Origin: a virus
Taxonomy: Duplodnaviria; Caudoviricetes
Length of the DNA: 64,000 bases
Strand: one strand, 5' to 3'
Virus record (IMG/VR): IMGVR_UViG_3300037408_000403
Coordinates: 3,026 to 67,025 of that record
Shown: positions 20,374 through 45,689 of the stretch, piece after piece
How positions within the stretch are numbered: position 1 is the stretch's first letter
How the letters are laid out: every line of letters begins with the position of its first letter
Position numbers and translations under genes: made by a program
The notes under the pieces: model-generated
What the model saw: only the letters and a program-made list of their open reading frames with translations
Told to the model about the DNA's origin: nothing
The model's database searches: none

Positions 20374-20381
20374 CAAACATA
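20374..20381 (-). promoter_or_regulatory. -7 box (TATGTTTG) of the scaffold/capsid/fibre/lysis operon
   Basis: Exact TAnnTTTG match 40 nt upstream of the scaffold start. Confidence 0.7.
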
Positions 20382-20403
20382 TACATGATGTTGAAAACAT
20401 TAC

Positions 20404-20437
20404 GGATTATTAGTCCGCATTTACGGTTAAATAATCC
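20404..20437. promoter_or_regulatory. 13-8-13 inverted-repeat operator, copy 1
   Basis: GGATTATTAGTCC-gcatttac-GGTTAAATAATCC; same architecture as 45626-45659. Confidence 0.75.
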
Positions 20438-20445
20438 TATATTTA
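20438..20445 (+). promoter_or_regulatory. -7-like box (TATATTTA) for the HTH/TerL operon, abutting the operator
   Basis: One mismatch to TAnnTTTG; 15 nt before the first ATG. Confidence 0.55.
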
Positions 20446-20460
20446 CTGCATAACTGAAGT

Positions 20461-20661
20461 ATGTCAATGAGTAAAAGAGAAGGTTTCGGTAAGGCAAGGC
20501 GCATACGAATCCATGCCGAGTACGAAAGACAACTAAAATGCTATCCAGTTAGAGGACGGGGAGAAATCATAAAAGAGATTGTTTCTAATGTAGCAGATAC
20601 TCTCGGGTATTCACCGGAGTATGTGCGAAAAGCCATTAATAGCATTCTCAAGGGCAAGTAA
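20461..20661 (+). CDS. Small HTH protein, candidate late-gene regulator
   Basis: IVSNVADTLGYSPEYVRKAI HTH pattern; TAATG coupling to TerL. Confidence 0.6.
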   Translation: MSMSKREGFGKARRIRIHAEYERQLKCYPVRGRGEIIKEIVSNVADTLGYSPEYVRKAINSILKGK

Positions 20662-22655
20662 TGGATGGGCAGATAGATAGCATCATCCAGGAGAACAAAG
20701 CCCGGAGGGAGCTCCTCATGTCTCCATACGACCCGGTGACAGGAGAAGGATCACCCATAGCAAGGAAGGTGATCTCATTCTCTGCCGCAGGTCAGCAGAT
20801 GTGTTGGGGCTTCCCCCTGGCAATGTATGAGGAGAATAAAGTATTGCTTGATGCTATTGAGGCACATCAGAGTGTCGAGGCCACGATGAAGTTTGCATCA
20901 CAGATATGCGACTCTTATTCGGTGGCTATATTCATGAAGGACCTGATGAACATGAGGTTCCGACATGACTTTGAGTTTTGGGCCTTCTCCACCGTAAAGA
21001 TACAGGATAAGCAGTCCAAACAGATGATACCATTTAGGCTGAACCGGCCTCAGAGAAAGGCTCTGGCTATCATAGAGAAGATGCGTAGGGACCGGACTCC
21101 TATTCGTTTCATAATATGCAAGGCTCGTCAGTGGGGAGGATCTACCCTGGTACAGATCTACATGGCATGGATGCAGATAATACAGCGTACCGGATGGCAC
21201 TCTGCTATTGTGACAGACGTTGAAGATCAGGCCCGTAATATCAGGGGGATGTTTTCAAAACTGGCAAAGAACTATCCAAAGGTGCTTGGCAGTATTGTAT
21301 TCATGCCACATGAAGGATCAACAAAGAACAGAATCATAAAGGACAGGGGCTGTATCATAGGTGTTGGATCGGTACAGAAGCCCGACAGCTTGCGCTCTTT
21401 CGACTTCGCAATGACTCATATGAGCGAGGTGAGTCTTTGGAAGAGCACTGCACAGAAGTCAGCCGAGGATCTTGCACAGACACTCCGGGCAACAGTACCT
21501 GATGTTCCTGACTCCCTGGCAGCAGTAGAGTCAAGCCCCAAAGGAGTTGGGAACTTCTTCCACCGGGAATGGCTCGCAGCGAAAGAGGGGAAGAGCTCTT
21601 ATGTTCCCATCTATGTCGCATGGCATGAGATCGAGATGTACCAGAAGCCTGTTGAGAACTATGAGGTATTCATCAAGTGGATGCTCTCTGACTCTTATGC
21701 AATGTACCTATGGAACCTGGGAGCGACCCTTGAAGGGATAAAGTGGTACTTCGATACAAAGCGAGGAGAGAACTATGATGACTGGAGGATGAAGAGTGAG
21801 TATTCCTCTGATGACATCGAGGCCTTCCAGTCAACCGGTGCCAGGGTGTTCTCTCAAGCCTATGTAGAGCTGGCCCGGAGGAATAATAAAGATCCCGAGT
21901 TTATTGGAGACGTATTCGGCAGTACCAACAAAGGTAAAACTGCTCTCGATGGAGTGGACTTTAAGGTTGTTGACCGGGGCCCGATGTATGTATGGGGTCT
22001 CCCGGATAAGTCAATAAACATCAGTAACCGATACCTGGTCACTGTGGATATCGGAGGCAGAACGGAGAAGGCAGATTACTCAGTGATCAGAGTGATAGAC
22101 CGGTACTGGATGAGCGAGGGAGGCAAGCCGGAGATAGTAGCCACATGGAGAGGACATATTGATCAGGACCTTCTCGCATGGAAGGCAGCACAGATCTCGA
22201 AACTATATAACAATGCCCTTCTTGTTGTTGAGTCAAACTCCCTCAATACTGAGGAGAGCGAGGGTAATCACTTCCTAACAGTGCTTGATGAGGTTGTGAA
22301 ATACTATCCTAACATCTATGCCCGGACGGAGCCGGATAAGGTACGGCAGGGTCTCCCTATCAGATATGGGTTCCAGACCAACATGAATACAAAGCCGATG
22401 GTCATTGACACCCTGAATGGGGCACTGAGGGAAGAGGCATATATCGAGAGGGACCGCAGGGCATGTGATGAAATGGACACATATGAGGTAAAAGAGAACG
22501 GCACCTATGGAGCTGTCGAGGGGTGCCATGATGATATCGTGATGGCAACGGCAATAGGGCTGTGGATATGCTTTAACTATATGCCTATGCCGAAAGAGTT
22601 TACTCCGTCATCAGGCAAGGGTAAGAACAGAATAATCAGTGAGGCAACTATATAA
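20661..22655 (+). CDS. terL: Terminase large subunit
   Basis: CKARQWGGST Walker A, HMSEV Walker B, VESSPKG motif, VTVDIGG...ADYS and CHDDIVMA nuclease motifs. Confidence 0.93.
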   Translation: MDGQIDSIIQENKARRELLMSPYDPVTGEGSPIARKVISFSAAGQQMCWGFPLAMYEENKVLLDAIEAHQSVEATMKFASQICDSYSVAIFMKDLMNMRFRHDFEFWAFSTVKIQDKQSKQMIPFRLNRPQRKALAIIEKMRRDRTPIRFIICKARQWGGSTLVQIYMAWMQIIQRTGWHSAIVTDVEDQARNIRGMFSKLAKNYPKVLGSIVFMPHEGSTKNRIIKDRGCIIGVGSVQKPDSLRSFDFAMTHMSEVSLWKSTAQKSAEDLAQTLRATVPDVPDSLAAVESSPKGVGNFFHREWLAAKEGKSSYVPIYVAWHEIEMYQKPVENYEVFIKWMLSDSYAMYLWNLGATLEGIKWYFDTKRGENYDDWRMKSEYSSDDIEAFQSTGARVFSQAYVELARRNNKDPEFIGDVFGSTNKGKTALDGVDFKVVDRGPMYVWGLPDKSINISNRYLVTVDIGGRTEKADYSVIRVIDRYWMSEGGKPEIVATWRGHIDQDLLAWKAAQISKLYNNALLVVESNSLNTEESEGNHFLTVLDEVVKYYPNIYARTEPDKVRQGLPIRYGFQTNMNTKPMVIDTLNGALREEAYIERDRRACDEMDTYEVKENGTYGAVEGCHDDIVMATAIGLWICFNYMPMPKEFTPSSGKGKNRIISEATI

Positions 22656-22665
22656 AAACACTATC

Positions 22666-23617: not shown

Positions 23618-23619
23618 CT

Positions 23620-24027: not shown

Positions 24028-24045
24028 TCGGTAATAACTCGTACT

Positions 24046-24918
24046 GTGATGACCGGAATATATAAAATACAATCTAAGTGTAAGCCTGAGCGTGTCTATA
24101 TTGGAAGTGCTGTTGATATAAGAGTACGATGGAATATTCACAGAAGCGATCTTAAATTGGGGGAGCATCATTCAAAGAAACTGCAAAGACATTATGATAA
24201 GTATGGTTTATGTGATTTACGCTTCAGTATCCTCATAGAGTGTGACAAGAAAGATATAGTAGCACATGAGCAATTTTTTATTGACTGCTATCACCCATAT
24301 TTTAATAATGCGATGACTGCGAGAAGCATGCTTGGGTATAAACACTCCGAGGAAACAAAAAGGAAATTCAGCCTTCTGCGTAAAGGGAGACCAAGTACAA
24401 GGAAAGGAACGAAGGTTTCTCCAGAAACCCTCGAAAAAATGAGAAGAGCTAATTTAGGAAAGAAACTTTCGGAAGAGACAAAAAGAAAAATAGGTGAGGC
24501 AGTCAAAGGTAAAAATACTTGGTCGTGGGGGAATAAATATAGATTAGGCAAATATCACACTGAGGAAAGTAACGAAAAAAACAGGCAGTCAAATATTGGA
24601 TTACAGGCTGGGGCTAAACATCCAATGTACGGGAAACATCACACGGCAGAGGCACTTAAAAAAATAAGCGAGGCGTCAAAAGGCAATAAATATTGTCTTG
24701 GTAAGCACCTTACTGAAGAAGCAAAAAGAAAGTTGAGTGCAGCAAATAAAGGTAAAAAACTGTCGGTGGAGACGATAGGGAAGATGTGTGAATCCCGTAA
24801 GGGCAAACATCTTTCAGAGGAAACCCGTAGAAAAATAAGTGAGGCGCAAAAAAGAAGCTGGAATAAGAAACGTAATATAATACCTGAATTAAGTGGAGGT
24901 TGCTGTAATACGAAATAA
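24046..24918 (+). mobile_element. Free-standing GIY-YIG homing endonuclease with NUMOD3 repeats
   Basis: GIYKI...VYIGS...EQFFID followed by many (H/L)SEETKRKI repeats. Confidence 0.9.
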
Positions 24919-25575: not shown

Positions 25576-25576
25576 G

Positions 25577-26275: not shown

Positions 26276-26276
26276 T

Positions 26277-26414: not shown

Positions 26415-26423
26415 GCGCATATC

Positions 26424-26876: not shown

Positions 26877-26901
26877 AAGCCGGGGCATCTCGTACCCCGG
26901 C
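26875..26901 (-). terminator. Intrinsic terminator of the ejection/portal operon
   Basis: GCCGGGG-loop-CCCCGGC-TTTTAT on the minus strand. Confidence 0.75.
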
Positions 26902-26947
26902 CAACCCTAAAACAAACCTAACCTATGAAAAAAACCCAGAAAGAAAA

Positions 26948-28945
26948 CTATCCTTGTGGCCCTCTCCCGAGTGCCCTTTGTGCTAACTCCATCGCCTTCG
27001 GGTCTGCCTGTCCAGCCTGAGCAAGCAGCTCCGGTGGTAGCTGTACCTGTCCCGGGGCACCTCCCTGGTTCATCATCTGCTCTTCCTGCGCCTTGACAGA
27101 GGCAAGAAGTTTATCTGCAAACGGCAGTGACGTATGTTCAAGGAACATCTTGAGGTCAATGAGCTGTCCCTCGAGCAGCTTCATCAGTGTCTCATCAATG
27201 ATCTGCCGGTAAACAGGCGTATCAGTACCCTGTGCCACTACCACATCCCAGGCAAGATTCTTAACCCTTTCCGGGTCATAGATCCTCGAGTCCTCGCTCA
27301 CGGACCTGCCGTTGATAGCCAGGTACCTCTTCTCCTTATAGAACTGCGTGATGACCTTCAGTGCCTTGGTGTCTCTCTTGCGGATGAAGTTCTGGAAGCT
27401 CATCATGTAGTCGAGAGTGTTCATCGTGGCGTTCTGTGCCTCCTGAGCATACAGTGAGGCCGGTGTCCCTGATGCGGCTTTCTCCCCTTGTATTGCACCA
27501 CGAACACCTGACACCTCTTGTAAGAGCTGCATCTGCAGTGCCAGCATCTCGTTTATTCCTATCTGTGTTGAGTTGGCACTTATCTGCTGAGGTACCTGTC
27601 CGTGCGGTTTGGGAGTATAAACGATGGTACCATTGAAGGCCCTCCACTCATTTGCAAAGTCCTTCTCACTCATGTGTTCCGGGATGACATCTTCGGGTAT
27701 CATCAGCACACCCTTGGCTGAGGCTGCAATAATAAAGTCCATCAGGATGATAAGACGGTTGATATATCTCTGCTGGTCAATGATATCCTCAACAAAGCCC
27801 CATACTTCACCATCAAGCAGAGGATAAAGAATCCCTGCATACGGATGCTCCTCATGCGCATAAGGTGTCTCACCCTCATACAGGACATGCCCGAAGGGAG
27901 TAAGGAACTTAACATACCAGTATTCCTCGAACTTAGGCTCGGCCTCAATAAGGGGTATCTCCTCTTCCGGTATTCCCTGATCCATCCCGAGACGTATGCG
28001 CTCAGAGTTCTGTGCGGCAATCTCCTTGATGGTGTAAGGAACTATGTTATAGCTGCCATCGAGAGGGTCATGTGCATAGGTCCTCCATTCTCCCCGGAGC
28101 TTCCATATCTCATACAATCGTGCTTTGTTGGGGTCCGTAGGTATATAGAAGTCAAGGTTATCAATGCGGTCTGCACTGAGGCCCTGGTCAGCTATATAGT
28201 CTTTCGTGACCATGCCGGCATAGATCTCCCGTATTCTTTTCTCATCTGCCGGTGACTTGGAGAACGTGCTGACGATATCATCAACGGTAGTGTCAATAAT
28301 CTCTCCCACGAGCCTCATGTCCGTGAGCCGTATGTCGGACACATCGGTATTAAAGAACAGCCTGGTAACGTTTACGTTCTCGATATACAGATCCTCAAGA
28401 TTTCTCTCCTTCCAATATTTATAACCTACCTTCTGCCAGGGAGCACCTGAGATGGCAAACTCCTCGAACTCCCTTGCATCAAGCTCCTTCACTGTATTGT
28501 TTTCAAGGGCACATTGCAAGGCATTGGTAAGCATCTCAGTCTCGGAGGCCTGTTCACGGCCCCGGCTTATGACAAGGCTCTTTGATGGGTTACTGCGGTA
28601 CTGTCCTATCAGGTTCTTAACGAGCTGCCGTATCTGGTTCTGTTTCAGAGGTACCTTACCCTGGTTCATCAGGTAGGTTTCTTCTGTTATGAAGTCATCG
28701 CTGTCGGGGTCCTTTATCATATCGGACCATTGATCTCCACGATAGTATTTACGATTTCGCAGTCTGCGGTCCCGGAAGTCTCTCAGGCTCTCCCAGTATC
28801 TGCGGCACTCCTCGAGGAGATCCATGTTCTCTCTGTCACCCCGGAAGATAAAGGAATCAGGTACCGGTACCTTCTTCTGTTTTCGCATGCCGAGAGCTGT
28901 CAGGCTCTTGCCCTTCAGGTCCTCTTTTGTTGTTATAATCCTCAT
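26948..28945 (-). CDS. Portal protein (P22-like)
   Basis: KYYRGDQW, NQIRQLVKNLIG, VEDIIDQQRYIN, QEVSGVRGAIQG motifs; 665 aa. Confidence 0.85.
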   Translation of the reverse strand: MRIITTKEDLKGKSLTALGMRKQKKVPVPDSFIFRGDRENMDLLEECRRYWESLRDFRDRRLRNRKYYRGDQWSDMIKDPDSDDFITEETYLMNQGKVPLKQNQIRQLVKNLIGQYRSNPSKSLVISRGREQASETEMLTNALQCALENNTVKELDAREFEEFAISGAPWQKVGYKYWKERNLEDLYIENVNVTRLFFNTDVSDIRLTDMRLVGEIIDTTVDDIVSTFSKSPADEKRIREIYAGMVTKDYIADQGLSADRIDNLDFYIPTDPNKARLYEIWKLRGEWRTYAHDPLDGSYNIVPYTIKEIAAQNSERIRLGMDQGIPEEEIPLIEAEPKFEEYWYVKFLTPFGHVLYEGETPYAHEEHPYAGILYPLLDGEVWGFVEDIIDQQRYINRLIILMDFIIAASAKGVLMIPEDVIPEHMSEKDFANEWRAFNGTIVYTPKPHGQVPQQISANSTQIGINEMLALQMQLLQEVSGVRGAIQGEKAASGTPASLYAQEAQNATMNTLDYMMSFQNFIRKRDTKALKVITQFYKEKRYLAINGRSVSEDSRIYDPERVKNLAWDVVVAQGTDTPVYRQIIDETLMKLLEGQLIDLKMFLEHTSLPFADKLLASVKAQEEQMMNQGGAPGQVQLPPELLAQAGQADPKAMELAQRALGRGPQG

Positions 28946-34900: not shown

Positions 34901-37900
34901 ATGCGGAATTGTGCAATCTGATCGTTCAGAACATCTTGAGGGCTTTGATATGGTGCTGTTGGCTCATTTATTAATCCCTCATCAGCTAAACTCTTATAGT
35001 TATTGACAATATCATCTGCCTGTTTGATGACAATGGCATCAAGGAGCTGGGAACCAAGGGGCTTGAGTGCATACTTTATGCGCTGAAGGAATAAGCTGTT
35101 AAACTCTTTATTTGAAGCAATGACAGCACTCTCTCCGTGCTTGCTTATTTCATATACTAACTCCTTGGCAAGCTGGTCGCTGTCTATGGATTCATCATAA
35201 AGCAGGTACTTGGTTACATTGTTCTGCCGGTTAAGAATAATGGCATGTAGCTTAGGGGTGGTTCCCCTTTTCATTTTGCTTAGGTATTCGGCAACATCCT
35301 TCGATTGTCCTATCTTTGTGAGTTCCGTGCTTGGGATATAGAGTTTTGTCCTCTCAAACTGAAGAACATCAACTTCCTGAGATGTCTTGTAGTCTTGTTT
35401 AGAGTAGTTCTCCTGTCTTTCATTGTAGTGGCTAAAGACTCCATATATGCCTTGGTCTGTATCAATAATAACACCATCATTAAGAGATACACCAATATCT
35501 GTAAGTGCATCTAATAGCTTGCCCTGTATTGACTTATCTGATTCTGACGGATCTACCCGGCCTGATGGATGGTTATGCACTAAGGTCACACTCTGAGAGC
35601 CAAGCTCCTTCGCTGCAGCAACGATAAGTTTGACATCAATAAGTGTTGATGTTGTACCTGATGTTGAAAGGTACTGCACCTGGTAGTTGCCATCAGGCAG
35701 AATATGAACGGCAAAAGCATTCTCTGTCGCAGCATCCTCGAGGTTCTTGAAGAGGAATGCAACGTCAGCAGGACTGGTTATCTTCGGAGTTCCCGTAAGA
35801 GGAGCACCGATAAAGTTAACCTGTCCCCTATTAACGAGTATCCTCTCGAAATATGTTACTCGATCACTGGTGGGTGTGGGATCGTAATTATCCGACTCCC
35901 ATAGGCTACCTTGTCTGGCGGTAGCTGCTCTGGAGGCTTCAGAAAGGTACGATAATCCTTCGGGGAACTCTGGCGGCCTTGTTGTTTTATAGACCCCTTT
36001 GCTGGTGATATATTCCGGTGACGGCTCATGTAATCCTACCTGTCCTTTCTCGTCTGTTACAGCCTCTAAGATAGTAAATAATCTCTTAAATGCAGCATCT
36101 ATCCTCTCTTTTTCAACTCCTTCCGGGTATGGATTTAGCCCGAATATCTTATAGAAGCTGTTCTTGGTTGAGTGAACGAGGTACTGACTTAACTGCCCTC
36201 TTTCGTCCAAGTTGCTCTCAACCCATGACTCAAAGGCCCTGGCTGCCATTTCATGCTCTGTGGTCCAGTAGTCAGATGCTCGCATCGCATCTATATCCTT
36301 GGCATCATAGTAATACTTGGTAGGCGTATTGCGCTCCTCTTTATTGTCCTTGGAGTATTTATCAAATGAGGATTTGGCATCATCCAGATACTTAATTCTT
36401 TGCTCAAGCTCTGCTACGGCACCAGATCTTCTTCCCTCTGAATACTTATAGGCACTGTGACCTGCTATCTCAACATAAAGTTCGTTGAGGGCCTTAAATA
36501 CTTCGGTTGTTGGCAAGCTGCCGATGAATCTGCTCTTGGTTTCGATCTTTGCCGGATCTCCATAGTCTCTATTTTTGATCCTCTCTAACAATGTGTCGAG
36601 CCTCTGCTGCTGTGCTGGTGTTGCCGGAGACTTCTTTTTGCCCCAGTCTCTCTGCCGTGTCAGGTAGTTGCGGATGCCGTTAAGCTGCATATCCACCTGC
36701 TTCTGTCCTTCTTCAATCCTTGCTGCAAAGCGTTCCAGGGAGACCTCGACAATCTTGGGCTGCTTGTATATGGTGTCAAGTACTTTCTTGAATGCCTCTG
36801 TTACTTCAGGACGGGCCTTGCTTCTTATTGCACCACCATGCGAAAGATAGTCGGTATCTCTGTTCTTAGATGCTTTTACGATACCTTTTTCGTCTTTCTC
36901 AAGTGTCACACCACGATCAACGGTCATAAGATAATGATCGAGAGCATGGAACCACTCATGAGCTACTGAACCGGCACCATTAATCCTTGTGAGATTGAAT
37001 ACAGCCCTGTTTCTTTCATAATGAGCTGCTGCCTTACTAAGCCCCTGTCCCCTGGCACCAAAGGCAATAGATAGCTGTCCATTCATAGAGAGAGCCCGGG
37101 GTGGTACCCCGAGTATGTCAGCAAGGTCCATGAGACCATCAAAGGCATAATTGAGGATGCGCTGTCTCTCATCCTGCGGCACCCAGTTACCGAACTCCCC
37201 TCCGGTGAATCCGAAGGTATCCTGGAACTGTGCTGTGGTCACATCTTCCTTGCGATACTCCTTACCAGTGCGCTGAATGTTATCAATATGCGGCCTCTCA
37301 GGGAATGCCGGCTTAAAGTTGATAAGCATATCGGCATTCTCGATCATCCACTTGTAGGCATCCTCCATTGTCTCGAAGCCGTCCTGCATCGTGTGACGCT
37401 TGCGCTCCCCTGCCTTACGATAGACCTCATATTTCTTGTTGCGGTCAGTGCCTATCTTGAATTTAGATGCTATCCATGTGAGCTGTATTGCCTGTATTGC
37501 TTCTGCCTCTGTTTTGAATATCTCACGGAACCGGTACACAACGACACGATCAGATAGCGGACCATCACCGGCTACCTTAAAGGGTTGGAATGTGCCATCT
37601 TCTCTCTTCCCGAGCTTCCAATGCTTCATCCACTGTGGTGTTGCATCTTTCCTGTTACCAGACCTCTTATCTGTATTAAGTTCAAGATCCTTCCTGGCAC
37701 CTCCTATCTTTGCCCCGAAATCCCGGATAGCATTAACTTCTTTTTCGCTCTCAAGCAGATCCTGTTGCTCCTGCTTAATCTCCTCATCAGTCATCGGTTC
37801 ATCCTCTGACTCATTCTCTTCTTGCTGCAGTGGTGTAACCTCCTCCGGGGCTTTCTCTTCCTCCTCCGGTGGTGTCTCCATTCTTATCTCTGTCTGAGCT

Positions 37901-40900
37901 CCACTTATAGCAAGGTCAATCTTCTGATCAAGGATATTGTTATTGCGGTCTATCTCCTCCTCTGCCTTCTTTATTGCATCATTAAAAGGAGCCAGGGCAG
38001 CCTGTAAGTTGTTCCCTGTTGGTGCGAATGTACTTTCTCCACCAAATAGAGACTGTTCCCCGGCTGCTTTCTTCTCCTCCTGTTGCCTGTCTCCGAGTAG
38101 TTCATTTCTCTTCTGAAGGGATCTTTCTTTTGCATCTCTCTGGTCCTGTATGCGGAGGATTCTTTGCCCAATACCGACATTAAGCTGCTCTGTTTCTCTT
38201 ATGAGCCGCTTTATCTCACTGATCTTATCCTTGGGTAATACAGTCTCATCAATCTCTGCCAGGTACTTGTCTATTCTTCCCTGTGTATGCTCTGCTGCGA
38301 GGGTTGCTGCCTTCAGATCTGATTGCTGTCTCTTGGTTGGCTCCTTGATGGCCTTGAGCTCCCTTATCCTTGCATTATGGTCATCCAGACTAATCTCAGC
38401 ATAAACAATGTTTTTGAGGTTCTGAATTTGCTGTTTTTCCTTGGTAGGTTTCTGAGGCACCTCTTCCGGGTTAACCTCTGGCTTAACTTCCTCTACCGGC
38501 TTATTAAGATAGATGGTGGTATCATCGAAGTATGTTTTGATACCAAAGTACTTGGCAATGTCTTTTGATAGTTGTCCTGGCTGCAGGACATCCATTTTAC
38601 CTACACGAGTAAGCTCGTCCAGGTATGCTTTAACGGCTGCCTCATTAAACTCTCCTACGTTCTCGGGAGTAACTATTGCAACTGTTCCCTTTTCTGATAC
38701 CTCTTTCTTTACCTCATCATCTACCTGATATGCCTGTTCCTCTGTAATAAGTCCTTGGGAGACAAGTGCCATCAGCTTCTTATATACAACATCTCTTAGA
38801 TTGACTTGTGTACCGGCATAGAAATGATTGGCATCACCTTTATGGCTGCCCGTTGTTTTGCTCAGGAACACTCCATTAGTGAACCATATCCTGTTGGCAT
38901 CAGCCTTCTCAACCAGGTTAACATCAAATCCTTTCTTCTCCAGGATCGAGGCCTCAATAGCTTTGACTCGGTTGTTTACATAAGCAAAGAAATCGTTGAT
39001 TTTATTGCCGTTGAATGGTCTGAACCCTCTACCATAAACAGACCAGATATAACTGCTTGTCTCAGACTTCTTGAGAGAGTTGAAGAATCTCTCTACCTCT
39101 TTTGGCAGATTGAGTTCTCTAAGATATTCTGCCGGGGACTCAAGGTTATATATGCTCTGCGCAATTTCACGAGCCTGTTCAATGCCGGACTTTCCGGGAG
39201 GATTTAAGGTGAGGATCTTGTTGAGACGGTCAATATCGTCCTCGGGAGGAGCAGGTGTTTCCTCGGGAATTATGTCTCCTGCTGGCTGTTCTCCGGTGTC
39301 TGTTCCGGTATCAGGCCCTCCCTCTTCATCCTGCGCTCCAGCATCTCGGCCTTCAGCTCCTTCATCTCCTGTAACGGCTGTGTCCCCTTCGCCTCTGCTC
39401 TCACCTTGGCGATGGTTATCAAGCCATTCCTGTATTTTACTCGTTCTTCCGGTGTCATTGAGGATCTTCTTTAATTCGTTAAATTGATTTTCATTAAGAC
39501 CGTATGGGAATACTTTGAAATAGTCGGGGTCACTCTCTGTAAGGTCCCGTAAAGATTCAATAGTATTACCTAACTCACTGAGCTCTTGCTCAAAGATAGA
39601 CATAATTGCCGGATCTTCAATGGCATCCGGCACTGTTTCGTCTGCCATGTTGATAAGTTCAGCTCGCTCGTCATCTTCTGTGAGAGGAACCTCTACTGTG
39701 GCTGCATCCGTCTTTTCCTGTATTGCCCTGAGCCTTGACCTGACATCATTGCGACCGGCCATGCCTCTCAGGATGTCTGCAAAGGCATTTGCCTGGTCCA
39801 TTGCTCCCTCCATGCCCACGAGAAGATTGGGGAACCTCTGGAATACACCAACCTCATTGAGTTTATCGAGGCTGATGCCCTCTTTCGAGTACATCCATAT
39901 ATTCTTCAGTCTCTCAGTGTTGTTCCTGCCAAAGTGAGTATAGTAATCCTCCATCGAGATACGACCACCACCCAGGAGGAACTGCAGCACCCCTTCTTCA
40001 AATGACTGCGGCTCCTTGGCAAGCATGGCCTCATCCTCTTTTGACATGGGCCACCCCTTCTTCTGTGAGATCTTCTTGGCTCCGGCAGTGAAGTCAACCT
40101 CTGCTGCCGGCTTCTTGGTACGGGTAGCATTGCCAAGCCACTCCTTAAACTGAGTGACTGACATTGTGGTTATGTTCCCGAGTCCCTTCCAGTCAGCATC
40201 ATAGTTGGCAAGGTAGTTCTCCCTGGCCTCGTCTGCTGTCTTGAACCCGAGCATTACCTTATGCTCATCGAACTTGCCGGTGCCCGGGTCAACCTGGTCA
40301 ACGACAAAGACCATCTGAGAGTCAAGGTTGTCTCCCAGGAACACATCTACCTGATCGCCATCCTTACCCTTGGTCCTCTTAAAGTAGCCATAGGTATTGT
40401 TCATCAGATTGGACCACTTCTCTCCATCCTTATCCACACCTGAGCGAATTGTGCCGGCAGGGTTCTCGATGGTAATAGCAAGCCCCTGAACTTTCACATG
40501 GCCCTTCTTGTAGTTTCCAGCCTTCTTCTCTGCTTCTGTGGGCTTTGTGTCAACCTGGTCACTTGCGGCAATTACGTCAACGTCAGCCTTATCATACTTG
40601 ACAAAGTGAGCATTATTGTAGGCGTTCCAGGGCTCAATGGTTCCGGCTTCATTACGGAGCTTCGCCATGCCCTTATTGTCAGGCTCGATGACTTCATATA
40701 TCTTACCGTCATATACGCTCTTAACAAAGTCACCAGCCTTAAACTCTCTTGGATTGAGGCCTTTCCCTGGTATTACAGGTTGTTCATTGCGAGCATCTAT
40801 AACCCTGCCAATGAGCTCATTAAGTTTTGCTGCACGTTCTGTATCTCCCTGGTCAAGTATGTCTTGCATACCTGCTTCAAGTTGAACAATCAGGTTATCA

Positions 40901-43203
40901 AGCTCCTCAGTAGTATATGTGCTCAGGTCCCTGTCAACGTCTATTGCAGTTTCAATTACAGTTTCAATTACATCTTCATCTTCAGGGTTTGTTACAGGTT
41001 TTGTTATAACAGGTGTTATAACAGGTTCCTGTTCTGTCGGTATCTCTGCCTGTGCTGAGGCTGCTGGTGGTGGAGGAGGATTCTTGGGTACCGGTTTCTG
41101 TGGCACAACGGCATGTATGCGGTACTCATCCGGGGTGAATGGATCTCCGCTGTCCTGCATGACCACCTCAAACTTCACCTTGGGATATAGCTCCTGCAAC
41201 TTATTCTTTGTTGTCTCGGCTGACTTCTGAGTATTATACACCTGGTCCACAACATAGTTGCCGTTCTCCTGGGGTGTGATGGTCAGCTCTGCCTTGCCGT
41301 CTGATATCTTTCGTGCCTGTGGCTTCTGAGGCTGTTCTGTAACTGCCTGACCCTCAACGGGGGCATTTGGGGGCATTTGGGGAGTACTCCCTGTTTCGCC
41401 AGGAATTACTTCTCCCTGCTGTGCAGGTGCCCCTATGATCTTATTGAAGTCCTCCGGCTTGATCTGTGCACTGGCACCGATACCATCCTCGGTAATCTCG
41501 TCAACAATGAGGGAGCCGTCAGTATTCACATCGGCTACACCCCACTTCTTACCCTGGTATTCTATTGTCTGCCCGGGCTGATAGGGTGACTGCGCTGTCG
41601 TTACCTGCTTGTCAAGGTTCTGCTTGGTAGCATTATACTGGTTCAGTTCATTGGCAACCCACTCATCGTAAGGCACATCCTTAGACTCCATGACATCGGT
41701 GCCCTTGACCATGAATGGTTTACCGGCAGGATCGTTGGCATCGTAGGCAGTGAGGACCATATTAGCCTCGTCCTCTGCATCATTGGTATTGGTGAGCACA
41801 ACCTTGCGTCCGTCCTTCAGGCTTGCGAACTTGACGATATTGCTCTCCGGGACGTTTGGATCTCCACCCTTCCATACATACTTCTGTCCCTCCTGACGTA
41901 TCTGTGTCTCCGGGTCCTGTGGCATATTGAGAGGACCGGCAACCTGTCCGGCCTCTCCTTTGTAGAACTCACCGTCCTTGACCTTCTTTGCCAGGTCTGT
42001 GGTCATGGTGAACACACCTCCCATCCCTGCACCGACAACAATGCTCTCCGGGACGTTATCGAACAACCCTACCTCTGGATTCTCCCCTGAGAACTTTGAT
42101 GCAGCGTTCTGTCCTATGGTAGTAAGGCCCTCTGACAGACCCTCATGTACTGGGGCGAACCATAATCCGAACCTCTTGTACCCTTTTGCGATGATACCCT
42201 TCATGGCATCAGAGGTGAAGAGCTGCTCTATGCCCTTGCCTCCCTTCTGCATGTAGTAAGATTTCAGCATCTTACCCATCTGCTCAGTGCCAAGCCACTC
42301 GAATAACCACTCGAATGTACCTGTCATGACTGCATCAGCCATCTTCATGGCCTCGGTCATGTCCTCCCGGTCCTTTATCTCGTCATATTTTACTGACCCG
42401 GTGCCGGCACCGAGGAAGGCAGCTCCACCGGGGACGAACATAGCAGCAACAGTCATCGGAAGAGACTCTGCTATACTGCCTATGGTAGCCTCGAGAGCCT
42501 TACCATACTGACCTGACTTGAAATAATCAGTTGCACTCTTATCCCACCTGGTTATCTCCTCTGTCTTGCGCTCGATGTTATCATCAAACCACTTGGCAAC
42601 CTTGCCCTCAGCAATGGTATTGCCTATGGTCTCAGTGTCAACTGATGGCAGTGTTGCTCCTAATCCTTTCTTCGGCACCCATAAGTCTTTCTCCTGCATG
42701 AGGATCTGCGCATCCTCCTGGCTGATGGTTCCTTTCCTGAGCTCCCTCTTTATCGCTGCATCAGCAAACATCCTCATGGGCGCATTGGCTATTGCCTCAA
42801 TACCTTGTGGTATGTTGACCGCCATCTGTCCGAGGGCAAGGCCTCCCTTCTGCAGGGATTTCTCTGTTGCCTGATGGAAGTTCTGTTTTGCCTCACCGAG
42901 ATAAGCGTTCTTGTCAAGCCACTCCTGTTGTCCCTTGGCGAGCTCATCCAGGTTGAGGATGTTTTCTGCCTCTGCATCTTCCTTTGACACTCCACCTGCT
43001 TTGATGGCGAGGCCATTGACAAACTCATCATAGCTCTCAGGAATACCCTTGATATTGGGATTGGCTCTGAGCGACTGGTAGAACATCTCGCTCTTGGCAG
43101 GGTCCTGAAGGGTCCTGCTGAAGGTTTCAAAGTCAGATGGTAGTCCCTTGATATTTGGGTTAGCGGTGAGCGACTGGTAAAATAGGTTCAGCTTATCGTC
43201 CAT
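28942..43203 (-). CDS. Giant polyvalent ejection-type protein (InPase-like, LPD1-like/zincin, JAB/RadC x2, metallopeptidase, ART, LPD38-like)
   Basis: GNYKKGH...DGDQVDVF...DEHKVMLG; DFGAKIGGARKD; HEWFH; HNHPSG; EEIQSDW; HEIVAH; WHGS...GYGLYFT; ITVNFNRKG...FFNASIQG. Confidence 0.85.
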   Translation of the reverse strand: MDDKLNLFYQSLTANPNIKGLPSDFETFSRTLQDPAKSEMFYQSLRANPNIKGIPESYDEFVNGLAIKAGGVSKEDAEAENILNLDELAKGQQEWLDKNAYLGEAKQNFHQATEKSLQKGGLALGQMAVNIPQGIEAIANAPMRMFADAAIKRELRKGTISQEDAQILMQEKDLWVPKKGLGATLPSVDTETIGNTIAEGKVAKWFDDNIERKTEEITRWDKSATDYFKSGQYGKALEATIGSIAESLPMTVAAMFVPGGAAFLGAGTGSVKYDEIKDREDMTEAMKMADAVMTGTFEWLFEWLGTEQMGKMLKSYYMQKGGKGIEQLFTSDAMKGIIAKGYKRFGLWFAPVHEGLSEGLTTIGQNAASKFSGENPEVGLFDNVPESIVVGAGMGGVFTMTTDLAKKVKDGEFYKGEAGQVAGPLNMPQDPETQIRQEGQKYVWKGGDPNVPESNIVKFASLKDGRKVVLTNTNDAEDEANMVLTAYDANDPAGKPFMVKGTDVMESKDVPYDEWVANELNQYNATKQNLDKQVTTAQSPYQPGQTIEYQGKKWGVADVNTDGSLIVDEITEDGIGASAQIKPEDFNKIIGAPAQQGEVIPGETGSTPQMPPNAPVEGQAVTEQPQKPQARKISDGKAELTITPQENGNYVVDQVYNTQKSAETTKNKLQELYPKVKFEVVMQDSGDPFTPDEYRIHAVVPQKPVPKNPPPPPAASAQAEIPTEQEPVITPVITKPVTNPEDEDVIETVIETAIDVDRDLSTYTTEELDNLIVQLEAGMQDILDQGDTERAAKLNELIGRVIDARNEQPVIPGKGLNPREFKAGDFVKSVYDGKIYEVIEPDNKGMAKLRNEAGTIEPWNAYNNAHFVKYDKADVDVIAASDQVDTKPTEAEKKAGNYKKGHVKVQGLAITIENPAGTIRSGVDKDGEKWSNLMNNTYGYFKRTKGKDGDQVDVFLGDNLDSQMVFVVDQVDPGTGKFDEHKVMLGFKTADEARENYLANYDADWKGLGNITTMSVTQFKEWLGNATRTKKPAAEVDFTAGAKKISQKKGWPMSKEDEAMLAKEPQSFEEGVLQFLLGGGRISMEDYYTHFGRNNTERLKNIWMYSKEGISLDKLNEVGVFQRFPNLLVGMEGAMDQANAFADILRGMAGRNDVRSRLRAIQEKTDAATVEVPLTEDDERAELINMADETVPDAIEDPAIMSIFEQELSELGNTIESLRDLTESDPDYFKVFPYGLNENQFNELKKILNDTGRTSKIQEWLDNHRQGESRGEGDTAVTGDEGAEGRDAGAQDEEGGPDTGTDTGEQPAGDIIPEETPAPPEDDIDRLNKILTLNPPGKSGIEQAREIAQSIYNLESPAEYLRELNLPKEVERFFNSLKKSETSSYIWSVYGRGFRPFNGNKINDFFAYVNNRVKAIEASILEKKGFDVNLVEKADANRIWFTNGVFLSKTTGSHKGDANHFYAGTQVNLRDVVYKKLMALVSQGLITEEQAYQVDDEVKKEVSEKGTVAIVTPENVGEFNEAAVKAYLDELTRVGKMDVLQPGQLSKDIAKYFGIKTYFDDTTIYLNKPVEEVKPEVNPEEVPQKPTKEKQQIQNLKNIVYAEISLDDHNARIRELKAIKEPTKRQQSDLKAATLAAEHTQGRIDKYLAEIDETVLPKDKISEIKRLIRETEQLNVGIGQRILRIQDQRDAKERSLQKRNELLGDRQQEEKKAAGEQSLFGGESTFAPTGNNLQAALAPFNDAIKKAEEEIDRNNNILDQKIDLAISGAQTEIRMETPPEEEEKAPEEVTPLQQEENESEDEPMTDEEIKQEQQDLLESEKEVNAIRDFGAKIGGARKDLELNTDKRSGNRKDATPQWMKHWKLGKREDGTFQPFKVAGDGPLSDRVVVYRFREIFKTEAEAIQAIQLTWIASKFKIGTDRNKKYEVYRKAGERKRHTMQDGFETMEDAYKWMIENADMLINFKPAFPERPHIDNIQRTGKEYRKEDVTTAQFQDTFGFTGGEFGNWVPQDERQRILNYAFDGLMDLADILGVPPRALSMNGQLSIAFGARGQGLSKAAAHYERNRAVFNLTRINGAGSVAHEWFHALDHYLMTVDRGVTLEKDEKGIVKASKNRDTDYLSHGGAIRSKARPEVTEAFKKVLDTIYKQPKIVEVSLERFAARIEEGQKQVDMQLNGIRNYLTRQRDWGKKKSPATPAQQQRLDTLLERIKNRDYGDPAKIETKSRFIGSLPTTEVFKALNELYVEIAGHSAYKYSEGRRSGAVAELEQRIKYLDDAKSSFDKYSKDNKEERNTPTKYYYDAKDIDAMRASDYWTTEHEMAARAFESWVESNLDERGQLSQYLVHSTKNSFYKIFGLNPYPEGVEKERIDAAFKRLFTILEAVTDEKGQVGLHEPSPEYITSKGVYKTTRPPEFPEGLSYLSEASRAATARQGSLWESDNYDPTPTSDRVTYFERILVNRGQVNFIGAPLTGTPKITSPADVAFLFKNLEDAATENAFAVHILPDGNYQVQYLSTSGTTSTLIDVKLIVAAAKELGSQSVTLVHNHPSGRVDPSESDKSIQGKLLDALTDIGVSLNDGVIIDTDQGIYGVFSHYNERQENYSKQDYKTSQEVDVLQFERTKLYIPSTELTKIGQSKDVAEYLSKMKRGTTPKLHAIILNRQNNVTKYLLYDESIDSDQLAKELVYEISKHGESAVIASNKEFNSLFLQRIKYALKPLGSQLLDAIVIKQADDIVNNYKSLADEGLINEPTAPYQSPQDVLNDQIAQFRISDDVYFSPIEKALEAIKQEKGTPQQWKAMLLKNGAKQAELDWMGWDDLASSNPSLTKDKIAVWVAANKIEIKEVEYKTGAESVPFENWSNDELIAEYAERFPGIDVDGMQSMTREELLAEMIGDDFHDLPDDPLKPKYSQYQLPGGEDYQELLLTMPLPEKELELPDGYYVVSNTDPGIAWPYYVVNREGVRVPDTGGTSQEGAIKKANQLLGYQNKFYKSKHWDESNVLAHVRFNTRRTDDGRTVLFIEEIQSDWAQQGKRTGFENTNEKRRFNTKNTSIEKDDVNGTYFLRYDNEIIADSFAYRFSSSTPEQIHGYLLNVANEMPMNNLRPMVADMPFKQTDQWAGLALRRMIRYAIDNGYDAVAWTPGSVQNERYDLSKQVDEITYSYNTNDEIYKISVHKDGNVEGNFNLTENELEGTVGKEIAQKMINGESTKEYSTGVKSLSGIDLKVGGKGMIGFYDTILPSVANKIGKKFGSQTITGSVQTSKTVEFIRIQPDGMATVYDIDDNPLGTFANRSDAVAFANRNTSIQVHTLPITDQMLNTYREGIPLFRAPQRGPERRRDVSDYLTEDTDRRERDMRGTFELWSDRLNTKINVVGTREELPAHIKRIAERDHKNSRISGIYDPATDQVYVVLAEMRESEVMPTILHEIVAHKGLKMVIGEGYSDMLRDIYDSMSQNEISRIAHLYKTDNKLIIADEYLGHMAEQNIEPSLFKRTIARIRQWFRRLFKINFSANDIHSMLLRSRRNLEKQMKPKPKDFETPGEYIDALTAWHGSPYSFDKFSTSRIGTSTGLNLSGYGLYFTDKPEVAKAFAEKAAYREKYLSRAMNEVGTTGAEWVKKALYHSRGNHEKALTYLREMQDKYNEQPKIANRLARVLKFMNKYPLPQNRYLYEVMFTRGKGPNDMNWLSQREILTNAQAAKISQQLNKEGINNGTLDFALWSTTPAEKVYDLLTTTLGSAKEASNFLLRAGIDGIKLTAANEGTTYLLFNDEGVQIKDKVQFRIGETEDPEDPNKPKGPPKNILRTKRELRSELWQNRMLAIREWQNKIRGLGGKITEISNPYRQENLSHGMVKNAIQTFDKEQGKELLSAAAEIMTKGNMSYAELQEYMQVKHAPERNNSIWRKQQIAAVLKNPDLTPLDIEFMVDKLNTTEAPDETNFSGYTTIEAREKAANFESRLPQDMIDRFWSSVRNATDFTIKRWLADGFIDMETYLKIKKQFQYYVPLRGWQPTEADDFISYQTEDIGKTVNPMRRAFGRKTRAEDPMQYIFNMAHTAVVTGEKNRIKQHAARLVKDNKDMKYLHRFKKVYAVWDGTYDEKTGLKNYTEVSERPDEDLWKRGMVRQKFDLSHTKRRPKSLAQEHEIDVFINGEKYTMVLPADVANALNKTPSKWDDVAFALREMRIGQFTRWMSANLTSKNPVFIPINQMRDLQYATLAHFIKGSGPEAAKFIKILPKARRAIIQHLNGKGDPKDPIYKMYQDFMVNGGETGYVHLKDIDQLAVEINKELSRLTGKNSSFDKLIHAEILRKLGGWMEHMAIRSENLSRFATYLVAKEQGKTDKEAAYEAKEITVNFNRKGRISSLMGSLYAFFNASIQGGDNVIRMGKQHSGKFFAIGAAGMAMGFLNAMYNSLWGGDDDDDEDKYAQINDYLKYNNFIFMIPGVKKYISVPLPHGFRWFNAMGVLAYQTAFGQKEIGAALKDGLSNAFAAVSPVNPVEFLSREGELTFRPLVPTTAMPIYDIFANQTYTGAPVHKEAFTRALDGRIADSSLGMDNVNTFVKGFTDFLFKIGGGDPDVGSKFYEDENGQIKKVTEIFDVNPSNIEHVIESWLGGRGMFWNDVLKTSQGTIEAAHQLATEDKSFGEAMSNINSNTVPILKSLVREPWRKTVYTSYYDIVDDIENYRSMVGMQNKAIDPGEEEIEMSPDYQYKADLLTDLRKDLKGIDEDLEGMTDPKQIQELKDVQELLIRNFVEAVSNYNEQ

Positions 43204-43210
43204 AACAGGC

Positions 43211-44266
43211 CTAATTGAAGATTGCGCTTACATCGGTGACACCCTGGCTGTCCGGCTCAAGTATAGCCGGCACTGTGGGCTCGTTTATGAATAGATCTGA
43301 ATACTTCCCGTTGAGAGCCTTTATCTCTTTCACCCTCTTCCGTGCCGTCATATCTCTCTCGTTTATCTTCTGCAGTTCTGCATCGTAGTCATTTCTCTTC
43401 TTCAGCTTGGCCCCCTCGGTCATTACACTTTGGATCTCACCGTCTGTAACTGCCTCTCCCATCGCCATCTTGCGAACAATGTTCTTGTACCTGTCCCAGT
43501 TTTCAAACACATATTGCTTTATCTGTGTGTTGCTTCTGAGATCTTCCGGCTGTATCTTATTCTTTATCACGACAGGTATTGCCGGGTCCTGTCTGAGCAT
43601 CTTAATGATAGCCCCTGCCTGACCTTCTGATATTGGAATGGTCATGCCGTTCTCCATATCTTCTATGGTTGTGAACGGTGCCTTGGTGCCGTACTGCTGT
43701 CTGTATCGTACCTGGTAGGGGTTATTAGCATCAACACCTGCCGCCTCTTTCCGTAGGTTATACTCTTGCGCTGTCTCATTCATCCTTGCCCTTGATGCCT
43801 GTTCATAGAGCTTGCCCTGGTTCTCGGTTCTAAAGGCCTCAAGTTCCTTCTGCTGTTCAAAGTTTGTCTTATTAACATCGTCAGTATGAGTTCTCTGCTC
43901 TCTTGCCTGTCCTGCCGCCCATTCTTGCTGATCCTTCTGCCTGTCCCATGCAACCTGATTATCCATGTCCCTCTGTTTAGCAGCTATCTCCGTCAGCCTA
44001 ATGCGGTCCTTACGGGTTCCGAACTCTGAATTGGATCTCAGCAGCTCATTACTGGCTCCCATAATCCCCGGGTTAACGGCCTTGGGAACTACAGTGGCGT
44101 TCTTCCCTGCCCCTACCGTATCGAAGAGTAACCGGAAGGCATCACCAATGGCATTGGTTTTCATTATTTTACGCTGTGCAGCATCACTCTGGTCTTTCTT
44201 AGCCTGTTCTTCCTTTACATACTCATCGTAATCGAAGATGGAGGAATATGGGTACTCTTGTTGCAT
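43211..44266 (-). CDS. Putative second ejection (internal virion) protein
   Basis: Gln/Lys-rich coiled coil with a GDAFRLLFDTVGAG segment; sits between the first ejection gene and the giant gene. Confidence 0.55.
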   Translation of the reverse strand: MQQEYPYSSIFDYDEYVKEEQAKKDQSDAAQRKIMKTNAIGDAFRLLFDTVGAGKNATVVPKAVNPGIMGASNELLRSNSEFGTRKDRIRLTEIAAKQRDMDNQVAWDRQKDQQEWAAGQAREQRTHTDDVNKTNFEQQKELEAFRTENQGKLYEQASRARMNETAQEYNLRKEAAGVDANNPYQVRYRQQYGTKAPFTTIEDMENGMTIPISEGQAGAIIKMLRQDPAIPVVIKNKIQPEDLRSNTQIKQYVFENWDRYKNIVRKMAMGEAVTDGEIQSVMTEGAKLKKRNDYDAELQKINERDMTARKRVKEIKALNGKYSDLFINEPTVPAILEPDSQGVTDVSAIFN

Positions 44267-44277
44267 AGTCGGCTATA

Positions 44278-44982
44278 TTAATTTTTATCAAATGATAAAA
44301 GTTCCTTGGCAGCGATACTGGCCTGACGTGCCATACTAATCTTTATTTTTGCCTCTTCAGTGTGGTGCTTTCCAAGCGATCTTTTATTCCCTTCCATCGC
44401 TTTACTTATTTTTCTATTTATCTCTTTAGGTCTTTCTCTTTGAGCTCTACTCATATTGCGCCTTGTTTCTTCCGACTTCTTTCGTCCCTTATGTGCCTCG
44501 CTCATCTTCCTACGAGTCTCATCCGAATGTTTCAATAATCCCTTCTTGCCTTTATTATGATTAACTCCACCACTATTGCGCCATGTTATAAGAGCATCAT
44601 TTGTTCTTATATGTAGCCCCTTATTCCATGACGGTTTGCCCTTATGAGCATCACTTAGCTTTTTCTTGTGCTCTGGAGTTAGACTCATTCCCATAGTGCT
44701 CCCAGCAGTCAGGGAGCTATTAAAGTAAGGTCTGTAAGAGTCAATAAAATATTGTTCTGTCTTAATGAGGTCTGCCTTATCACAACCAACAATTACAGAA
44801 AACTGTAAATCGGCCTCTCCGTATTTATCGTAATGTCTTTGTAGTTTTTTAGAGTGATGATTTCCTCTTCTCAAATCTTCATGGTGATATTGCCACCTTT
44901 TATGAATATTAACAGCACTGCCAATGTAGCTCCTGTTGGGCTTGCACTTAGATTGAATTTTATAGATCCCTGAAATTTTCAT
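44278..44982 (-). mobile_element. Free-standing GIY-YIG homing endonuclease with NUMOD3 repeats
   Basis: GIYKIQSKCKP...YIGSAV...HHSKKLQRHYDKYG; HSDETRRKMS repeats. Confidence 0.9.
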
Positions 44983-45566
44983 TACTCGTAATTGAATGTA
45001 TTTGTCGAAGGGATTGCCGTATTCTTTCTTTTGAATAAACTTGAGAGTTTTTTATCCCAGTCTTTAAATGCTCCATCGGCATCAGCCTGGGCGAACCCTA
45101 TCCCTGCGTTCATTGCATTGCTCATGAGGTTTGACCAGTTCTGCGACTTCCCCTGAAGGTTCTGAGCCTCGAGGTTATCAAGGCCTATCTTCTGCCCTGT
45201 GTACTCTCTGCGAATAGCATCCTGATACTCTGTGCCATACCCTGCGATCTTGTTTATGCTGTCGGCATATCCTCTCTGAGCTTTGTCTGCCGTTGCTACC
45301 TTCATTTCGTCCGATGCACCTGAGATGGCATTGTTCTGTGCCGTTTTCTTCATCATGTCATCGTACTGGGTGCGCAGGGTCTGGATGGCAGACTTCCCTT
45401 GTGTGGTATCAAGAAAAGGAGTGTTATACTCTTTGTCGTACCAGGTATCGAGTTCTGAGCGTCTGCGCCTGAGCTGCTCATCAATCTTGTTATTGGCTCG
45501 GGCAGAGCCTATTGTGCCGAATAAACCGGACACTACCGAACCTATTGCCAGGGCTGTGCCAATCAT
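44982..45566 (-). CDS. Putative first ejection/DNA-pilot protein
   Basis: Gly/Ala-rich hydrophobic N-terminus (ALAIGSVVSGLFGTIG) then Gln-rich coil, typical of podovirus ejection proteins. Confidence 0.6.
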   Translation of the reverse strand: MIGTALAIGSVVSGLFGTIGSARANNKIDEQLRRRRSELDTWYDKEYNTPFLDTTQGKSAIQTLRTQYDDMMKKTAQNNAISGASDEMKVATADKAQRGYADSINKIAGYGTEYQDAIRREYTGQKIGLDNLEAQNLQGKSQNWSNLMSNAMNAGIGFAQADADGAFKDWDKKLSSLFKRKNTAIPSTNTFNYE

Positions 45567-45595
45567 GATTGAATGTATGTGTTAATTAACGGTGG

Positions 45596-45603
45596 TAAAC
45601 ATA
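45596..45603 (-). promoter_or_regulatory. -7-like box (TATGTTTA) of the ejection/portal operon
   Basis: One mismatch to consensus; 22 nt from the operator, the same spacing as at 20374. Confidence 0.65.
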
Positions 45604-45625
45604 AATCATGACTTTCTATTGATAG

Positions 45626-45659
45626 GGATTAATTATCCATAAATCAGGACAATTAATCC
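45626..45659. promoter_or_regulatory. 13-8-13 inverted-repeat operator, copy 2
   Basis: GGATTAATTATCC-ataaatca-GGACAATTAATCC. Confidence 0.75.
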
Positions 45660-45681
45660 TCTTTTTCATTCTGTGACATAG

Positions 45682-45689
45682 CACCTTTG
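45682..45689 (+). promoter_or_regulatory. -7-like box (CACCTTTG) of the TerS-like/nozzle operon
   Basis: One mismatch to consensus; also exactly 22 nt from the operator. Confidence 0.55.

Follow-up and report, generated by a model that had tools for sequence, protein, structure and literature searches.

The window analysed here, 64,000 bp of a tailed phage genome (IMG/VR record IMGVR_UViG_3300037408_000403), corresponds to bases 3026-67025 of a single 67,025-bp contig, and positions given below are those of the window. Two intergenic regions, 25 kb apart, lie between divergent late operons, and each holds a 34-bp site composed of two 13-bp boxes. At site 1, the genes of a 272-aa protein and the major capsid protein are the first to be read leftward (18116..20333, minus strand). 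The genes of a 66-aa basic helix-turn-helix (HTH) protein (20461..20661, plus strand) and of the large terminase subunit TerL (20661..22655, plus strand) are read rightward. Site 2 separates an ejection/portal operon, read leftward, from a rightward operon encoding a 182-aa HTH protein (45707..46255, plus strand) and an 842-aa conserved late protein (46236..48764, plus strand). Together, the sites form a conserved and statistically solid cis-regulatory architecture that is real and non-random. The original prediction, made from this DNA alone, had placed one operator of a 13-8-13 layout at the centre of both divergent late-gene regions. The central position was confirmed, and the coordinates and sequences it gave for both sites and for four -7-like boxes were all correct when read directly.

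Paired boxes and -7 elements between divergent late operons

Each 34-bp site consists of two 13-mers of the form GG-N9-CC with 8 nt between them, and the box centres are 21 bp apart. In site 1, box 1 (GGATTATTAGTCC, 20404-20416) is a quasi-palindromic 13-mer of this form, and box 2 (GGTTAAATAATCC, 20425-20437) follows it after 8 nt and abuts the -7 box on the TerL side. Site 2 repeats the arrangement with box 1 (GGATTAATTATCC, 45626-45638) and, again 8 nt further on, box 2 (GGACAATTAATCC, 45647-45659). The single 13-mers are near-palindromic, with 4-5 of 6 base pairs formed. All four half-sites had been claimed to fit one degenerate 13-mer, and its zero-mismatch matches in the 67,025-bp genome are exactly these four boxes, a count that is circular since the consensus was derived from the same four boxes. 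A non-circular test used the 26 box positions of site 1 alone as the query against the whole circular genome. Site 2 was the best other match (22/26), the runner-up reached 18/26, and the maxima in 40 first-order Markov random genomes were 16-19 of 26. The two sites are thus one type of element, as had been proposed. Allowing one mismatch to the 13-mer leaves 23 matches after the eight true-box rows are dropped, against 18 +/- 4 expected. Single one-mismatch 13-mers at 13064-13076 and 27822-27834 were considered and judged to be chance; one lies at a late-gene junction and the other within the portal gene.

A -7 element of the type read by the Bacteroidota primary sigma factor (sigma-ABfr) is present at all four promoters, and all four positions are kept in relatives. 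The capsid operon has an exact TAnnTTTG (TATGTTTG, 20374..20381, minus strand) 22 nt from site 1. At site 2, the -7-like boxes of the ejection/portal operon (TATGTTTA, 45596..45603, minus strand) and of the operon for the 182-aa HTH and 842-aa proteins (CACCTTTG, 45682..45689, plus strand) also lie 22 nt from the site, the latter 17 nt before the start codon. As the original prediction stated, these three boxes are each exactly 22 nt from a site edge. The fourth, that of the small-HTH/TerL operon (TATATTTA, 20438..20445, plus strand), abuts box 2 of site 1, also as stated, and the start codon comes 15 nt further on. The boxes at 20438-20445 and 45596-45603 deviate from TAnnTTTG in the last base only, and the box at 45682-45689 keeps only nAnnTTTG. 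With a genome frequency of 0.0023 per strand position for the relaxed pattern nAnnTTT[AG], the chance of three -7 matches at three fixed positions is ~1e-8, or 3e-7 with 1 nt of slack. No TTTG is found 19-21 nt upstream, where a -33 element would lie, at any of the four promoters, and this part of the original prediction also held.

The geometry that follows assumes that each 8-mer occupies -11 to -4, centred on -7, and the starts are predicted rather than mapped. The distance between the two predicted starts is 79 bp at site 1 and 101 bp at site 2. Relative to the leftward capsid-side promoter, the centres of box 1 and box 2 of site 1 fall near -40 and -61; relative to the rightward TerL-side promoter, they fall near -39 and -18. 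At site 2, the leftward ejection/portal promoter has box 1 near -40 and box 2 near -61, and the rightward promoter of the 182-aa/842-aa operon has box 1 near -61 and box 2 near -40. Positions -40 and -61 are classical activator positions. Box centres there are as expected for an activator and fit that part of the earlier interpretation. The TerL-side promoter, with its boxes near -39 and -18, had been read as the one that is repressed. Box 2 does abut its -7 box (9/9 phages), but the promoter is not simply covered, as it also has a box at -39/-40 in 9/9 phages, the distal box lying 21-22 nt from its -7 box in all of them.

Between site 1 and the capsid-side -7 box, the 22-nt gap contains an additional ATGTTGAAAAC-like motif (20388..20398), which is kept in most close relatives and absent at site 2. 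This motif could be the site of a second factor specific to the capsid promoter.

Conservation of the architecture in related phages

TerL relatives are numerous, with more than 550 in species-representative genomes (Bacteroidales prophages) and more than 550 in IMG/VR. The Bacteroides phage isolates BF1-TP2, BKO1-TP3, and BS-TP4 are distant members whose TerL is about 40% identical to that of the window; their GenBank records label TerL 'tail spike protein'. A closer clade of eight related phages has TerL proteins 48-61% identical to that of the window and keeps the synteny of capsid, scaffold-like gene, divergent gap, small open reading frame (ORF), and TerL. Both regions of these phages were aligned on the 34-bp core, with nine phages compared at site 1, the window phage included, and eight at site 2 (the window phage and seven relatives).

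At site 2, the order 8-mer, 22, 13, 8, 13, 22, 8-mer is kept within 1 nt in 7/8 phages, with a left 8-mer of the TATGTTTA type on the minus strand and a right 8-mer of the form nAnnTTTG in these seven. The eighth phage (G001, L012:19315-19380) has three boxes with a 21-bp period, and its rightward -7 box (TATATTTG) has moved outward to match, 23 nt beyond the last of the three. Site 1 follows the order 8-mer, 22 +/- 2, 13, 8, 13, abutting 8-mer in 9/9 phages. There, the abutting 8-mer is TAnnTTT[AG] in every case, and the start of the small ORF lies 15-25 nt downstream. Column by column, information content is highest at the predicted 8-mers and the outer GG and CC of the boxes, and low within the gaps and the 8-nt spacer.

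The box sequences behave differently from the spacing. The strict box pattern had no match in the first relatives searched, and comparison of the sequences indicates that only the architecture is conserved, not the box sequence. The original prediction had proposed scanning the genome and its relatives for the motif and the 22-nt spacing; the spacing proved to be conserved, and the motif did not. The 22-nt phasing that persists despite box divergence is the signature of a phage-specific DNA-binding regulator. Within a phage, box identity averages 18.25/26, against 13.7/26 between phages (permutation p = 5e-5). Operators that evolve together with a protein peculiar to each phage would be expected to co-vary in this way. 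The two boxes can be direct or inverted copies, and this differs not only from phage to phage but also between the sites of a single phage. What is conserved is therefore a pair of quasi-palindromic boxes in helical phase; the 13-8-13 operator of the original prediction stands as two phased boxes, but not as one fixed 34-bp dyad.

The pairing extends beyond the closer clade. For the wide family, an unbiased count of the offsets of 11-mer pairs in 96 distinct capsid-side/TerL-side intergenic regions gave a sharp peak at 21 bp, with 23 direct pairs (3.6 in shuffles) and 20 inverted pairs (5.5 in shuffles). At least a dozen unrelated box sequences feed this peak. In distant complete genomes, the box pair is present once, only beside TerL, which indicates that the second copy belongs to the subclade that has a second divergent region. 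In a comparison with five relatives, conservation across the clade was confined to the late module, the early region being mosaic.

Some TerL relatives are unusual in other respects. In one (G002, L005:2989-6135), the TerL frame has 1048 aa instead of the usual ~665 aa, and only its residues 4-499 align with the window TerL, as one segment; this protein may contain an intein or an inserted endonuclease. The closest relative in the genome collection (L019, JAAZBI010000099.1; TerL 58% identical) is in a metagenome-assembled genome labelled Mollicutes, and two further matches are labelled Eubacteriales and Oscillospiraceae. These are probably mis-binned phage contigs, since almost all other TerL matches are Bacteroidales.

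Transcription units and candidate binding proteins

The contig ends share an 85-bp overlap, and the phage genome (46% G+C) is therefore complete and circular. This Bacteroidales phage is temperate, with the lysogeny genes found just outside the window, in genome bases before it (L018:738-2918). This module comprises a CI-like repressor with a Peptidase_S24 domain, a small, divergent Cro-like gene, and a tyrosine integrase with a Bacteroidota-type arm-binding domain. CAGTA/TACTG-type repeats lie between the CI-like and Cro-like genes. CI operators were considered as an identity for the boxes and rejected, as the repeats of the CI/Cro region differ. The genome has three divergent intergenic regions, of which two hold the 13-8-13 site; the third is the CI/Cro switch, outside the window, with its repeats of another kind. 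From this switch, the early operon runs leftward round the circle into the window (63939-48793). Its products include an SMC-like ATPase, RecT, a metallo-beta-lactamase-fold protein, a KilA-N/ANT protein, a 166-aa protein with a DnaA C-terminal HTH domain (DnaA_C), PAPS reductase, a methyltransferase, and HNH endonucleases.

Outside the early region, four late transcription units leave the two divergent intergenic regions. The first runs leftward from 20333 with the 272-aa protein (phrog_22323, a PHROG family without an assigned function), the major capsid protein, and then tail and lysis genes. The second runs rightward from 20461 and carries the 66-aa ORF, TerL, SSB, a GIY-YIG endonuclease, and others. 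The third (26948..45566, minus strand) encodes a 194-aa protein, a GIY-YIG homing endonuclease, 351-aa and 4753-aa proteins, and the portal protein. The fourth runs rightward from 45707 with the 182-aa HTH protein and the 842-aa protein, the latter belonging to another PHROG family without an assigned function (phrog_32516). An exact-peptide search of IMG/VR for the 842-aa protein gave no match, and its relatives were sought record by record instead. The four units had been described as morphogenesis units; the number is right, but the TerL operon also carries the SSB and GIY-YIG endonuclease genes. Two GIY-YIG and two HNH homing-endonuclease genes lie at 24046-24918, 44278-44982, 52511-52924, and 57289-57693, two of the four within late operons. 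Their homologues in two relatives (G013, G014) occupy other positions, which suggests that these genes are mobile.

Two HTH genes, those of the 66-aa and 182-aa proteins, always accompany the sites. The 66-aa gene is the first after site 1, and its stop overlaps the TerL start at 20661. The protein is basic (isoelectric point, pI, 10.1), and its three-helix model has a predicted local distance difference test (pLDDT) score of 77. In the closer clade, a 66-75-aa HTH protein is encoded behind site 1, and a gene of this small-ORF family always follows it. Across 14 members of the family, HTH matches are scattered and weak (Sigma70_r4, HTH_Crp_2, HTH_28). A profile search against solved structures likewise gave weak HTH matches only, and a homologue search with the family profile returned ten unnamed proteins only. 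Look-alikes of the 66-aa model in a structure atlas are unnamed clusters, among them HTH_Tnp_1 clusters with the small-terminase family PF10668 in 14% of their members. The last, putative recognition helix tracks the box type, with EYV[RG]K accompanying GGA[CT] and DKV[RS]R accompanying GG[TC][TA]AA.

In distant relatives, the first gene after direct repeats encodes a 127-149-aa tandem version of the small-HTH family (phrog_27246; hhalign probability 73%, E 3e-5). In one distant phage (G007), the single box pair stays beside the small-HTH-family gene, and the homologue of the 182-aa protein is far from it. The tandem-HTH gene and a gene for a rhomboid-like membrane protein lie between the repeats and TerL in distant relatives that include BF1-TP2 (L007:3155-4026; L125, L036, and L152), and the membrane protein gene thus separates the small-HTH-family gene from TerL.

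From these features, the 66-aa HTH protein ranks first as the putative box binder, although its chance of being the right one is put at slightly under even. A binder linked to the late module is favoured because only this module is conserved across the clade. Ranked second is the 182-aa protein or an undetected early protein. The 182-aa gene is the first after site 2, and its product has sub-threshold HTH_28 and HTH_Tnp_1 matches, with an IS3/Fis-type HTH followed by long helices. Its match to the small-terminase family phrog_4102 (E 0.0056) is below other weak HTH matches, and its structural model is poor (pLDDT 57). It is a candidate for either a second binder or a small terminase. The small proteins of the early operon were examined as late regulators and set aside, as none had a regulator-family match or was conserved across the clade (five relatives).

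Proposed regulation, alternatives and known systems

From the sequence, we infer that a protein binds the boxes, which protein this may be, the sign of its effect, and the transcription starts. In the proposed mechanism, two dimers of one phage-encoded, sequence-specific protein would bind the 13-bp boxes side by side. Box centres 21 bp apart, or two helical turns, would put both dimers on the same face of the DNA. The back-to-back late promoters, of the Bacteroidota -7 type, would be read by the host polymerase with its primary sigma factor. From boxes near -40 and -61 of three promoters, the protein could recruit polymerase from class II and class I positions, the box near -40 replacing the upstream promoter element at every promoter. 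One bound complex would then switch on both divergent promoters, and two sites would control four late units. Activation of both promoters is favoured because the strict 22-nt gap fits a face-of-helix contact with polymerase. At the TerL promoter, the box at -18, within the spacer, would limit or autoregulate the operon, whose products may be needed in small amounts. This fourth promoter may therefore be activated and throttled rather than plainly repressed. The protein that does the binding would be the 66-aa basic HTH protein encoded directly after site 1.

The best reading overall is that the two sites are pairs of adjacent binding sites for a phage-specific regulator acting from -40/-61 on three promoters, and it is judged probable, with ample room for doubt. 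The fuller version, in which the 66-75-aa HTH protein activates each divergent pair from these positions and throttles its own TerL operon at -18, is tentative and, taken as a whole, rather doubtful. The interpretation given in the original prediction is partly supported.

Several points weigh against an activator, and against the 66-aa protein in this role. The missing -33 TTTG is weak evidence of activator dependence and not diagnostic of it. Elements of sigma-ABfr promoters have been described as 'centred at -7 and -33', and a global analysis of Flavobacterium johnsoniae failed to identify the -33 one (PMC7366714). Across the wide family, the distances from the repeat midpoint to TAnnTTT[AG] in 37 intergenic regions show no sharp peak, and the exact geometry is thus limited to the closer clade. 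The 66-aa protein has no regulator-family match in Pfam at threshold, and its model gave no Foldseek match in the PDB at E <= 0.001. The co-variation of helix and box is confounded with phylogeny: where the helices are alike, the small proteins also resemble each other most overall. A late activator encoded behind its own operator in a late operon leaves the timing trigger unexplained and would need one from outside; in the known paradigms Mu C and Ltr, the activator is in an earlier, repressor-controlled operon. The translational coupling of the small HTH gene to TerL is also small-terminase-like. Finally, the capsid-side -7 box is a perfect consensus that might work alone.

This last point would also suit a repressor. 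If the sites were repressor operators, the late promoters would be silent in the lysogen or in early infection until the repressor is removed or titrated, and late genes have to be kept silent in a temperate phage. On the TerL side, box 2 of site 1 extends over promoter positions -12 to -24, where repressors classically bind. At the other three promoters, however, the boxes end upstream of -33 and leave the -7 element and the start uncovered. The exact 22-nt gap is of the kind that helical phasing with polymerase would call for and that simple occlusion does not need, and the region of the CI-like repressor carries other repeats. Repression as the main function of the sites is considered unlikely.

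The chance that the boxes are pac-type packaging sites, for a small terminase formed by the 66-aa protein, the 182-aa protein, or both, is judged to be smaller still. Their promoter position would then be secondary. Small terminases bind phased repeats, as at lambda cosB and SPP1 pac, and both sites lie directly upstream of HTH genes with a terminase-like context. The 66-aa gene adjoins TerL and is coupled to it, as a small-terminase gene would be, and the PF10668-containing look-alikes of its product, the weak phrog_4102 match of the 182-aa protein, and the HTH-plus-long-helices layout of the latter point the same way. The small-terminase family profile, however, has no match at threshold, including for the 66-aa protein. 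Two equivalent sites 25 kb apart are not expected for packaging, and neither the conserved 22-nt distance to -7-like boxes on both sides nor the conserved distance from -7 box to start codon is explained by it. Iterons of a replication origin, which are often phased at ~21-22 bp, would fit the presence of the early DnaA_C protein. Two origins, each exactly centred between promoters, are not expected, and the DnaA_C protein is not conserved across the clade. DnaA-box-like sites of this protein were rejected, as the likeness to a DnaA box is confined to one half-site and is absent from the boxes of relatives. Chance is excluded by the genome-wide match test, the within-phage permutation test, and the -7 spacing probability. 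Taken together, an origin, another structural DNA element, or chance is a very improbable account of the boxes.

A regulator acting on the late promoters would be of wider interest. Literature searches turned up no late-control system described for Bacteroides or Bacteroidales phages, in agreement with the original prediction, which knew of no such architecture in Bacteroidota phages. To our knowledge, almost nothing has been established about the timing of virion genes in temperate phages of gut Bacteroidales, or about the way in which activators cooperate with the unusual primary sigma factor of the Bacteroidota. The large clade is a compact, testable model of two short fixed-phase sites and four promoters, in which natural site variants are many, each with its own candidate protein. 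If the proposal is true, the system would be the first late-gene activator to be defined in Bacteroidota phages, and its fast-evolving specificity would provide many natural, orthogonal regulator-operator pairs for sigma-ABfr promoters. Confirmation would define an activator geometry for these promoters, aid the prediction of late promoters in gut phage genomes, and supply orthogonal inducible parts for Bacteroides engineering.

The closest analogues are Mu C, Ltr/RinA, and phi29 p4, and the likeness to them would be functional. Mu C is a small phage protein that binds as a dimer to a dyad overlapping the upstream part of the late promoters, and it serves four of these (lys, I, P, and mom), which are read poorly by host polymerase alone (PMC4461284). 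Here, too, four late units share one type of site at the upstream promoter edge, and the box centre near -40 is compatible with a Mor/C-type dyad overlapping the upstream promoter element. Mu has one site per promoter, whereas the window phage has one double site per two divergent promoters. The gene of Mu C is in a middle operon, unlike the candidate gene, which sits behind its own site in a late operon, and the host sigma factor and promoter type are here those of the Bacteroidota (-7/-33). The Mor family profile does not match the 66-aa protein, and in the Foldseek search of the model of this protein, Mu Mor (1rr7), a fold of N-terminal dimerisation helices and a C-terminal HTH, ranked 48th (E 4.6). 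It is not demonstrably Mor/C-like.

The Ltr superfamily (RinA, LtrC, and ArpU) groups small basic proteins of Gram-positive temperate phages that bind phage-specific repeats directly ahead of the terminase genes and turn on the genes for packaging, morphogenesis, and lysis, with a specificity that co-varies with the repeats (PMC3753634). The candidate is similarly small and basic (66 aa, pI 10.1) and adjoins TerL, with phage-specific repeats upstream of the terminase gene. Unlike in Ltr systems, its gene is downstream of the repeats, inside the TerL operon, and the boxes are 13-bp quasi-palindromes 21 bp apart, with two sites serving four divergent operons. The RinA, LtrC, and ArpU families gave no Pfam or PHROG match. 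Membership of the protein in the Mor/C or Ltr groups is thus not supported by profile matches or, for Ltr, by gene position.

The divergent A2b/A2c-A3 region of the Bacillus phage phi29 offers another parallel. Its regulator, p4, activates a late promoter without an upstream element and represses the neighbouring promoter that it overlaps, working at the early/late switch with the histone-like p6. The present proposal likewise has one regulator bound between divergent promoters. The sites of p4 and their spacing differ from those described here, and phi29 is without a second copy of the region. In Escherichia coli, the CRP sites centred near -41.5 and -61.5 share one face of the DNA, and divergent promoters can be served by a single symmetric site. 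The likeness to CRP is one of class I/class II geometry only, deduced here from predicted starts; CRP itself, unlike the putative phage protein, is a host global regulator of sigma-70 promoters. The architecture is a variant of a known theme, the control of late genes by a phage-specific DNA-binding protein.

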